From the IMG/VR virus record IMGVR_UViG_2671180429_000018: a stretch of 5,531 nt of DNA, one strand, 5' to 3'. Origin of the DNA: a virus (lineage: Duplodnaviria > Heunggongvirae > Uroviricota > Caudoviricetes). Positions 1 through 3,000 of this stretch are shown here, in pieces; within the stretch, counting starts at the first letter, position 1, and every line of letters begins with the position of its first letter. The position numbers are program-made.

Positions 1-3000
1 CGTAATTCCGCATCAGTAAGCGCATTGGCCCGCATGTTCTGATACAGGTTGGTAACCAGCCAGTAGTGCGCGTTTGATTTCCACGGATAAGACTCCGCAT
101 CCGGATACAGGCCTCGCTTCCGGCAATACTCGTAAACCATATCAACCAGCTCGCTGACGTTTGGCAGTCCGGCGATAACGGATGCTTCTTCCCGGCACCA
201 TGCAACAAACTGCCCGGGTGATGGCAGAAATGGTCGATTCTGCCGACGGGCTACGCGCATTCCTGCGTTAACCTGTTCCATTGTGGTGATCCCGTTTTCC
301 CGGAAAGCCAGAACCCACTGGCGGCGGATTTCGTTCAGTTCGTTCTGGTCACGGTTAGCCAGGCTCGCCGGGAAAGTTGCCAGTAACTGGCTGAACACAC
401 CGTTGATGATCTGCGCTACCTGCTGTACCTGAGGCTTTTCGTCGTACTGTTCCGGCATGTTGTTGGCGATCCGACGCATCTGCTCACGGTCAAAGTTAAC
501 CATCTGTGCGGCGATGTTTTTCATAGATCCACCCCGTAAATCCAGTCTGTGTTTGTCAGGTCGAGTTTTGGTTTGCTGGCTGTCACGGCTGCCTGTTGCT
601 TGTTACGGTTGATTTCGAGCTGGGTCCACTTGTCGCGGAGTTTGGCCGGGCTAAGCACGTTACCGGACCAGAAGTTGTCCTGGCATGCCCAGCGGAACAG
701 TACACACATGTCGCGATGGTTGCGTCCGTCACGTTCACGCATCAGGCGGATATCGTTAGCCCACCCAGCAAAATTCGGTTTTCTGGCTGATGGTGCGATA
801 GTCTTCACCATGTCAAACATCCACTCTGCGGCGGTCAGGTCTTCTGCTGTCCCCCACTTGCTGCCGCTCTGAATTGCAGCATCCGGTTTAACCACAGAAA
901 GATCGTTTTCTGGCTGGTCAGAGGATTCGCCAGAATTCTCGGACGAATAATCTTTTCTTTTTTCTTTTGTAATAGTGTCTTTTGTGTCCCCCTGTTTTGA
1001 GGGATAGCAATCCCCTAATTTGAGGGATGTTTTATCCCTCGTTTTAGGGGATTTTCCCTCGTTTTGAGGGATGTCCCTCATTTTAGGGGAACCTCCCTCG
1101 TTTTGAGGGATGCACCATTCTGAGATGTTTTTATTTGGTCCAAACATGCCGCCTTGCTGCTTGATAATATTCATTCTGACGAGTTCTAACTTGGCTTCAT
1201 TGCACCGTTTGACAGGTAACTTTGTAATCTCGCTAAGTTGAGAATCGGTGATTCTGTCCATTGGTTTATTCCACCCATAGGTTTTACGCAGAATGGCAAG
1301 CAGCACTTTAAACTGTCGCTTGGTCAGATCTGCGCCTGAATAAGCCTCAATCAGCATATTTGATAGTCTGGCGTAACCATCATCGAGATCTGCCACATTA
1401 CGCTCCTGTTCGGCAAAGTTACCTCTGCCGAAGTTGAGTATTTTTGCTGTATTTGTCATAATGACTCCTGTGGATTGATCCAGTAATTCCCTCAGAATTG
1501 CATATCAATTTGCTTAGAGTCCCCGGCGGCCACCGGGGATTTTTTCTTTGTGATTTCATCAAGCGCATACTTAAAAGCTCTGCTAATCGGACTGATGTCT
1601 GATGCCATGCCAAAAGCACACAAGACCGAAGCTATAAACCTCCAGTCTGTTCTGCTTATCTTCGATTCATGACAGCCAATCATCTTTGCCAGACCGCGCT
1701 GGGTAAGCGTTGACAGGTTGATGAGTAAATCAGTTTCAGCGCGATCAATTTCTCGCTGTGATAGTTTGCTGTAACTTGTTTGTTCCATTTCTTAAGATTT
1801 CCAATAGTGAATAGCTAGTTGAAAGGTATGCGTGGAAACGCATATGGCCTTAGTTGGTCAGATATATTGGGACTCGCTTTGTCAGCGACGTAGGACGAAT
1901 GTCCATTGTGAAAATAGCGGTGTTACTTATGCAGCCAGAAGGTTCTTTTTGCTTATTTCAAGCATTTCGCTTGCTTGATATTTGCCACCAGAAATCTCTT
2001 CGATTTTTGATGCGTATTTAGTTTTCCCAAAAAACTCAGTCTTAGGGAGGAAGCCGTTTTTGAGCCACTTATAGACAGCCCTTTCGCTAACTCCACAAGC
2101 CTTCGCAACTTCAGGGATGCCGACACCTTTAATCGGCTCATCAAGATTTTGCATAGGAATATCCTTTTTCGTACTTTCAGTACGTATTATGGTTGAACTG
2201 AAAGTTTTTGCAAGTGCTTTAGTATCGTACTCATGGTTCAGAATGAAAAAGTGCGCAAAGAATTCGCCCAGCGGCTAGCGCAAGCCTGTAAAGAAGCTGG
2301 TCTTGATGAACATGGTAGGGGAATGGCTATAGCCCGTGCCCTTTCTCTTTCGTCCAAAGGCGTTAGCAAATGGTTTAATGCTGAGTCTTTACCGCGTCAG
2401 GAAAAAATGAATGCGCTTGCGAAATTTCTAAACGTTGATGTTGTTTGGCTTCAGCACGGCACTTCGTTAAATGGAGCGAATGATGAAGATACTCTTTCAT
2501 TTGTTGGCAAATTAAAAAAAGGGTTAGTGCGCGTGGTTGGTGAGGCAATTCTTGGTGTTGATGGTGCCATCGAGATGACCGAAGAGCGCGATGGGTGGCT
2601 CAAAATTTATAGCGATGATCCAGATGCCTTTGGTCTTCGTGTGAAAGGAGACAGCATGTGGCCCAGAATAAAATCAGGAGAATATGTACTCATTGAGCCT
2701 AACACCAAAGTATTCCCGGGTGATGAGGTGTTTGTCAGAACCGTTGAAGGACACAACATGATTAAGGTTCTTGGCTATGACAGAGATGGAGAATACCAAT
2801 TTACAAGCATTAACCAGGATCACAGGCCTATAACGTTGCCTTATCATCAAGTAGCAAAGGTGGAGTATGTAGCTGGTATTCTGAAGCAATCTCGCCATCT
2901 GGATGACATCGAGGCAAGGGAGTGGCTGAAAAGTTCGTGACTTCATCGTCACATAGCTGGTAACCAGTGGCCTGAAGAGACGTTTGGGTAAGGAGGATAG

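Follow-up and report, generated by a model that had tools for sequence, protein, structure and literature searches.

A P22-type boxB hairpin downstream of cro in a Shiga-toxin phage sequence: almost certainly the nutR site of phages 933W and H-19B, beside an interrupted nutL

The DNA considered here is a 5,531-nucleotide (nt) stretch of a virus of the Caudoviricetes (IMG/VR record IMGVR_UViG_2671180429_000018), the whole of which we call the window, and the element in question is a small RNA hairpin encoded on its minus strand between the genes cro and cII. We conclude that positions 1874-1919 (minus strand) are almost certainly nutR, the rightward N-utilization site of a Shiga-toxin (Stx) phage of the 933W/H-19B type. 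In the 933W record (AF125520), the feature “nutR; putative N-utilization rightward” at locus positions 4874-4919, an offset of 3000 from our numbering, matches window positions 1874-1919 base for base, which is also the very range singled out by a first-pass annotation made from the sequence alone, and the whole cro-cII spacer (about 138-142 nt) is 100% identical both to that of 933W and to that of H-19B (AF034975). The hairpin is already known and annotated, and the site is an ordinary nutR; the only point specific to this copy is the loss of its partners in association with an insertion sequence (IS), to which we return below.

The identity carries weight given what has been published for the H-19B site. 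Its nutR, identical in sequence to that of the window, has served as a substrate in antitermination assays with N in vitro and in vivo, including reporter read-through, and N-dependent read-through of terminators has been reported for it (PMC3526286, PMC4499122). RNase H and T1 footprints place N and NusA on the spacer and boxB (PMC3526286; PMC4499122), and RNase T1 footprinting reveals two hairpins in the nutR RNA (PMC3526286).

The anatomy of the site is as follows. The first-pass annotation had placed a P22-type boxB in 1874-1919, and the hairpin is confirmed, at 1888-1874: the minus-strand RNA UCGCUGACAAAGCGA forms a 5-base-pair (bp) stem closed by a GACAA pentaloop (UCGCU-GACAA-AGCGA, 1874-1888, minus strand). 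The assignment of these positions as the nutR boxB draws on sequence, fold, and a shuffle test; in 933W, the hairpin falls inside the annotated nutR, and H-19B carries it unchanged. Positions 1874-1888 have the reverse complement TCGCTGACAAAGCGA, for which an exact-core search gave a single occurrence in the window. The boxB begins 38 nt past the cro stop codon and is preceded by a boxA-like motif, CGCUAUUU (1912-1919, minus strand), and a small spacer hairpin, GGAC-AUUC-GUCC (1893-1904, minus strand), whose dyad symmetry is typical of H-19B-type nut sites. The boxA-like motif, found by sequence and alignment, starts 7 nt past the cro stop codon at the first base of the annotated nutR and agrees at 7 of 8 positions with CGCUCUUU, the form that mEp506 and VT2-Sakai carry at the same position. 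Further downstream stands a hairpin in the tR1 region, identified by folding (inner stem UAUGCGU-UUCC-ACGCAUA; 1823-1851, minus strand), whose homologue carries the label tR1 in the epsilon34 annotation and that of a rho-dependent terminator in the VT2-Sakai annotation; it is a candidate for the first terminator that N has to overcome. Folding of the cro-cII spacer RNA returns three hairpins, in the minimum-energy and centroid structures alike, and the order of elements on the minus strand past the promoter pR, namely, cro stop, boxA-like motif, boxB, tR1, and the cII start at 1788, fits that of a nut site. A search against all Rfam families at E values up to 1 returned nothing at nutR, with no curated nut or boxB family matched; two sub-threshold snoRNA-like matches fell on the iterons of the replication origin (988-1111) and are spurious.

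Does this boxB belong with that of P22 or with that of lambda? The first-pass annotation had favored P22, and the comparison bears this out: the window reads UCGCUGACAAAGCGA, P22 reads GCGCTGACAAAGCGC, and lambda reads GCCCTGAAAAAGGGC. In P22, nutL (NC_002371) comprises boxA CGCTCTTTAAC, a 9-nt spacer, and boxB GCGCTGACAAAGCGC, and nutR has CCGCCGACAACGCGG; in lambda, nutR comprises boxA CGCTCTTA, a 9-nt spacer, and boxB GCCCTGAAAAAGGGC. The window boxB matches that of P22 nutL (GCGCU-GACAA-AGCGC) at 13 of 15 bases, with a compensatory change from G-C to U-A in the outermost pair, and the nutL boxB of 933W and H-19B (GCGCTGACAAAGCGC) is identical to that of P22 nutL at all 15. The features that mark the lambda type (a GAAAA or GAAGA loop, a GCCCU/AGGGC stem, and an N protein of the PF11438 type) were not found, the window stem being UCGCU/AGCGA. 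In the complex of the P22 N peptide with its RNA (PDB 1A4T), the peptide contacts loop bases G6 and A7, and C8 touches an Arg and an Ile (PMC11480772). Searching the PDB by phmmer with the whole of 933W N missed this entry, the peptide being too short and too diverged, and gave only a chance match (E = 1.5).

The hairpin is also conserved: relatives among the phages of E. coli, Salmonella, and Enterobacter keep it in their cro-cII spacers. The spacer hairpin, the boxB stem, and the tR1 hairpin all recur in mEp506, phiSTEC1589, VT2-Sakai, epsilon34, S.Inf 5-2, GE_vB_TR, BIS08P22, SPN9CC, and one Enterobacter phage; the four pairs of the spacer hairpin are all invariant among 10 relatives, and the tR1 hairpin shows compensatory changes (in one pair, UA in four sequences and CG in four). 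For the boxB stem, we compared the nutL and nutR sites of 933W, P22, SPN9CC, VT2-Sakai, and S.Inf 5-2 and found no broken pair in any of them: the outermost pair (pair 1) occurs as U-A, G-C, or C-G, pair 2 occurs as C-G or G-C, and the loop-closing pair 5 occurs as U-A or U-G. This covariation was tabulated by hand; MAFFT, run on the bare 14- to 15-nt boxB sequences, placed the loop gap at the 3′ end.

The same comparison turned up two forms of the boxB loop within one family of N proteins (PF25694). The GACAA pentaloop is found in 933W, H-19B, mEp506, SPN9CC, and P22. In VT2-Sakai, epsilon34, S.Inf 5-2, and Shigella phage 75/02 Stx, the same stem carries GAAA or GCAA, a true GNRA tetraloop. 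The tetraloop is the GACAA pentaloop minus its C, and the N proteins of the tetraloop phages carry a different arginine-rich motif. Based on these pairings, the family divides naturally into readers of the GACAA pentaloop and readers of the GNRA tetraloop, which could amount to an uncharacterized specificity switch and which we regard as a weaker lead.

The N protein of the lineage points the same way as its boxB. The N of 933W and H-19B falls in the same Pfam family as P22 gp24, PF25694 (57.5 bits for 933W N and 152 bits for P22 gp24, against a cutoff of 27.9), and has no PF11438 match; lambda N scores 14.9 bits in PF25694, below the cutoff, and 91 bits in PF11438. In 933W and H-19B, the nutL boxB GCGCTGACAAAGCGC lies 165 nt upstream of N. 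The comparison of arginine-rich motifs that the first-pass annotation had proposed was made with the 933W protein, the window itself holding no N: in a global alignment, the N-terminal motifs of 933W (FKGNSRSRRRERLKAKA) and P22 (FAGNAKTRRHERRRKLA) line up as F-x-G-N-x-x-x-R-R-x-E-R, with F, G, N, RR, ER, and A in common. The two proteins also end in a nearly identical C-terminal tail, LP.VA.YAAG.RKSKQ.TAR, but differ in length, the 933W protein having 127 amino acids with an inserted middle region and that of P22 having 100. We infer that 933W N has P22-like RNA specificity, which is a reasonable reading of these likenesses.

Beyond this lineage, the N proteins of HK620, VT1-Sakai, and mEp213 have only their C-terminal 22 to 30 residues (CLPNVAIYAAGYRKSKQLTAR) in common with 933W N, and their different arginine-rich motifs are paired with different boxB hairpins. 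That of VT1-Sakai has a 7-bp stem and a CUAACC loop, which we take to be the phage-21 type. It seems that the RNA-binding module and the polymerase-binding tail of N are exchanged independently.

The first-pass annotation had also described the phage as a mosaic, with a P22-type boxB beside lambda-like replication genes. That description is accurate and agrees with what is already known of the 933W and H-19B genomes. The O protein is 95% identical to lambda O, and the fragment of P is 99% identical to lambda P; the one large change in O is the insertion of 13 residues, corresponding to two extra iterons (six, versus four in lambda).

In the mechanism that we propose for the intact phage, transcription from pR through cro would yield an RNA carrying, in order, the boxA-like CGCUAUUU, the spacer hairpin, and the boxB UCGCU-GACAA-AGCGA, and the arginine-rich N terminus of the phage N protein would bind the boxB pentaloop. 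The GACAA loop, as in the boxB of P22, is expected to adopt a fold like that of a GNRA tetraloop, with the C bulged out. N and spacer-bound NusA would remain on RNA polymerase and allow it to read through the Rho-dependent tR1 and later terminators, leading to the expression of cII, O, P, and Q and finally of the toxin and lysis genes. N-dependent read-through from pR is thus what would lead to Q and, by way of Q, to Shiga toxin and lysis under phage control.

Whether this mechanism can operate here depends on the other side of the immunity region, where the first-pass annotation had seen neither nutL nor N. Half of that statement stands, the window containing no N. The other half does not, given that the window includes pL together with the opening 38 nt of nutL (5289-5372). 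A promoter scan places pL at 5289-5317 (plus strand; TTGATA-17-CATTAT), followed by the transcript start TCAGCAGGACGC, and in an alignment this leader is conserved in lambda, P22, VT2-Sakai, and H-19B. The annotated nutL of 933W (locus 8335-8401) corresponds to window positions 5335-5401, and the match to the window ends at 5372, such that 38 of the 67 nt are left (5335-5372, plus strand): the leader, the place of a degenerate boxA, and GATTC, the first of the two arms of the spacer dyad. Past this point, 933W continues with AATATGAATCTACGGCGCTGACAAAGCGC; the nutL boxB (boxB-L) is absent from the window. In its place, the last 159 nt of the window (5373-5531, minus strand) are the end of an IS629/IS1203 element of the IS3 family, beginning with the inverted repeat TGAACCGCCCCGG at 5373; the full-length element has 1310 bp. 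A search of the window by exact core and by hairpin found no second GACAA hairpin, and the second copy in the lineage is the GCGCUGACAAAGCGC that 933W and H-19B carry upstream of N.

As for boxA on this side, 933W and H-19B nutL read GAATATACAAC at 5355-5372 (933W locus 8355-8372), with no recognizable boxA. At the equivalent nutL position, lambda, P22, and VT2-Sakai have a boxA, CGCTCTT(T)A, to which the nutR of the window keeps its 7-of-8 match.

What lies beyond the IS can be read from E. coli O103:H2 PV16-126, a genome with an Stx1a prophage that differs from the window at a single position, 4447. In PV16-126, which has an annotated IS3-family transposase, the IS runs at its far end directly into a lambda-type int gene that has lost about 13 codons from its N-terminal end, with torS next to it (the features of this junction lie at locus positions 9274-10583 and 10567-11619), and the IS is flanked by TTCG and CCCT, with no target duplication. 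Because the IS abuts the truncated int, we read the junction as an IS-associated deletion that took out the pL operon from boxB-L through xis, including N, ssb, cIII, kil, gam, and bet. Of 5426 complete genomes, 1 has the junction. The prophage of PV16-126 sits between torS and torT, carries stxA1a and stxB1a, and has frameshifted portal, tape-measure, and lom genes. The copy in the window is probably also without N, which would leave its nutR intact but an orphan. The first-pass annotation had made its P22-type reading hang on a second boxB or an N-like gene somewhere in the prophage; both are probably missing from this one, but the apparent cause is recent decay, and the identity of the hairpin stands.

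Could the site then be a relic? It is about an even question whether nutR in this prophage is intact but idle, with no compatible N at hand, such that pR transcripts would stop at tR1 or later terminators and Stx1 would depend on its own promoter alone. This proposal concerns function and is compatible with the identity of the site as nutR. It is favored by the state of the prophage as judged from PV16-126, in which the IS has entered the spacer of nutL without a target-site duplication and has its other end at the shortened int beside torS, and in which the three frameshifted genes mark the prophage as defective. It is opposed by the region from nutR to cI, which shows no decay, only one substitution separating 852-5372 from 933W, and by the wide occurrence of a possible helper: of 5426 complete E. 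coli genomes, 408 contain boxB-L and N of the 933W type at near full length, and supply in trans from a co-resident prophage is therefore plausible. The 60 records listed, of 1275 that matched, do not include PV16-126.

This leads to a further proposal, that the nutR of this Stx1a prophage is served in trans by the 933W/H-19B-type N of another prophage. A nutR without an N encoded in cis would act only if another prophage supplied an N of the same specificity. We consider such service improbable. If it were true, a crippled prophage would have its early genes, its Q, and its phage-driven toxin output controlled by a neighbor. An Stx1a prophage without N, without its excision genes, and without a full int is probably locked in and poorly inducible, and its toxin output would rest on the stx1 promoter or on the help of other prophages.

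Two proposals that challenge the identity of the site fare worse. In the first, the stem-loop is mainly a part of the Rho-dependent terminator tR1 and its rut sequence, or an element of RNA stability or processing, rather than a binding site for N. Rho does bind the spacer of H-19B nutR, so rut overlaps nutR (PMC3526286), and in lambda, the annotated rutA and rutB flank boxB. However, N and NusA protect boxB and the spacer (PMC3526286), a second GACAA hairpin lies upstream of N in 933W, H-19B, and P22, and the stem covaries while the loop is kept; a role in termination would be additional to N binding, and we find it very improbable that it is the principal one. The second, that the hairpin is a functionless chance inverted repeat, can be dismissed: it is only 15 nt long, and a chance hairpin with a 5-bp A/U stem and a lambda-like GAAGA pentaloop does occur at 1992-2006, within the coding sequence of cro and off any nut position, but a 5-bp Watson-Crick stem with a GACAA loop, counted anywhere on either strand, appeared in just 26 of 2000 dinucleotide-preserving shuffles of the whole window (mean, 0.013 per shuffle), and this one is at the exact position of nutR, is conserved in phages of three host genera, is duplicated at the nutL of the lineage, and has published footprints on the identical sequence. 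We reject both proposals.

Several points nonetheless weigh against a functional nutR with P22-like specificity. The RNA-binding motifs of 933W N and P22 N are identical at about 8 of 18 positions, which falls short of proving the same RNA specificity; BLASTP of 933W N against P22 gp24 aligns the C-terminal 30 residues only, and the likeness of the motifs emerged from the global alignment and the Pfam profile. The boxA is one position off the consensus, and the boxA-like motif may play no part; H-19B N reportedly needs NusA but not NusB or S10, with boxA dispensable, and the spacer dyad is said to be required either intact or absent. The window ends inside the IS, and the deletion is read from a genome that differs by one base. 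The loss of N may have left the site without function in this prophage, and its role in this exact prophage is drawn from experiments on identical sites elsewhere.

The remainder of the window accords with this lineage. By megablast, positions 1-5372 are 99.4% identical to 933W, with similar values from many Stx1 and Stx2 phages; the match to 933W stops where the IS begins, and the genes around nutR (cro, cII, O, P, cI, and stk) are those of 933W and H-19B. The minus strand holds, in order of window position, a partial P (1-524; Pfam Phage_lambda_P), O (521-1459; Pfam Phage_rep_O), inside which lie the six iterons annotated in 933W (988-1111), and cII (1492-1788; open reading frame list and Pfam Phage_CII, E = 1e-31), the first gene past nutR and tR1. 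The cro gene occupies 1927-2154 (minus strand; stop codon, 1927-1929), based on the open reading frame list, the 933W annotation, and helix-turn-helix matches, and pR, the source of the nutR-bearing transcript, lies at 2186-2213 (minus strand), as annotated in 933W (locus 5186-5213) and found by promoter scan (TTGCAA-16-CATAAT). Divergent from cro, cI (2233-2940, plus strand) is followed on the same strand by three accessory genes, including a Ser/Thr kinase, by a terminator, and by an intergenic region that runs into the IS end. The three genes between cI and pL (3001-4911, plus strand) are a DUF3024 gene, a RuvC-family gene, and the eukaryote-like Ser/Thr kinase gene stk, known accessory genes of 933W that stand in place of lambda rexAB; stk contains both position 4447, the sole difference from PV16-126, and position 4212, a difference from 933W.

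Three further observations concern the window itself. Of its 32 differences from 933W, 31 fall within 1-851 (P and the 3′ part of O) and only one falls within 852-5372, a clustering that suggests a recombination boundary inside O. On the plus strand, 1434-1548 hold an oop-like antisense unit that, like its lambda counterpart, overlaps the oppositely oriented cII at its 3′ end; it has a promoter (TTGAGT-17-CATAAT, 1434-1462) and, past it, a strong intrinsic terminator at 1516-1543 with a T run. At 1766-1779 (plus strand), opposite the first codons of cII, the repeat TTGC-N6-TTGT resembles the CII-binding repeat of pRE; if it were active, the nutR region would presumably also be transcribed antisense, toward cI, a reading drawn only from lambda and the VT2-Sakai annotation.

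How, then, does this site compare with the systems already described? Compared with 933W (AF125520/NC_000924) and H-19B (AF034975), the sequence is the same over the whole cro-cII spacer and nutR itself does not differ at all; the difference is that boxB-L and N are cut off by IS629/IS1203 in the window and deleted in the matching genome. Compared with P22, whose nutL boxB (GCGCUGACAAAGCGC) is the one in the N-peptide complex of PDB 1A4T, the window shares the GACAA pentaloop but has U-A rather than G-C as the outermost pair, a boxA-boxB spacer of 23 nt with a hairpin of its own rather than one of 9 nt without a hairpin, and the boxA-like CGCUAUUU rather than CGCUCUUUA, and its lineage replicates with the lambda genes O and P, whereas P22 has genes 18 and 12. 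The nutR of lambda (boxA CGCUCUUA, boxB GCCCUGAAAAAGGGC) occupies the same position after cro, has the same order of boxA, spacer, and boxB upstream of cII, O, and P, and likewise forms a 5-bp stem with a purine-rich pentaloop; however, its loop is GAAAA where that of the window is GACAA, its stem differs, and the window spacer is longer and structured. The nutR sites of VT2-Sakai, epsilon34, and related phages lie in a homologous cro-cII spacer (72-95% identity) and have the same UCGCU/AGCGA stem, spacer hairpin, and tR1 hairpin as the window, but their boxB loop is the four-base GAAA, without the C, and their N motif is G-T/S-A-A-S/G-RRR.

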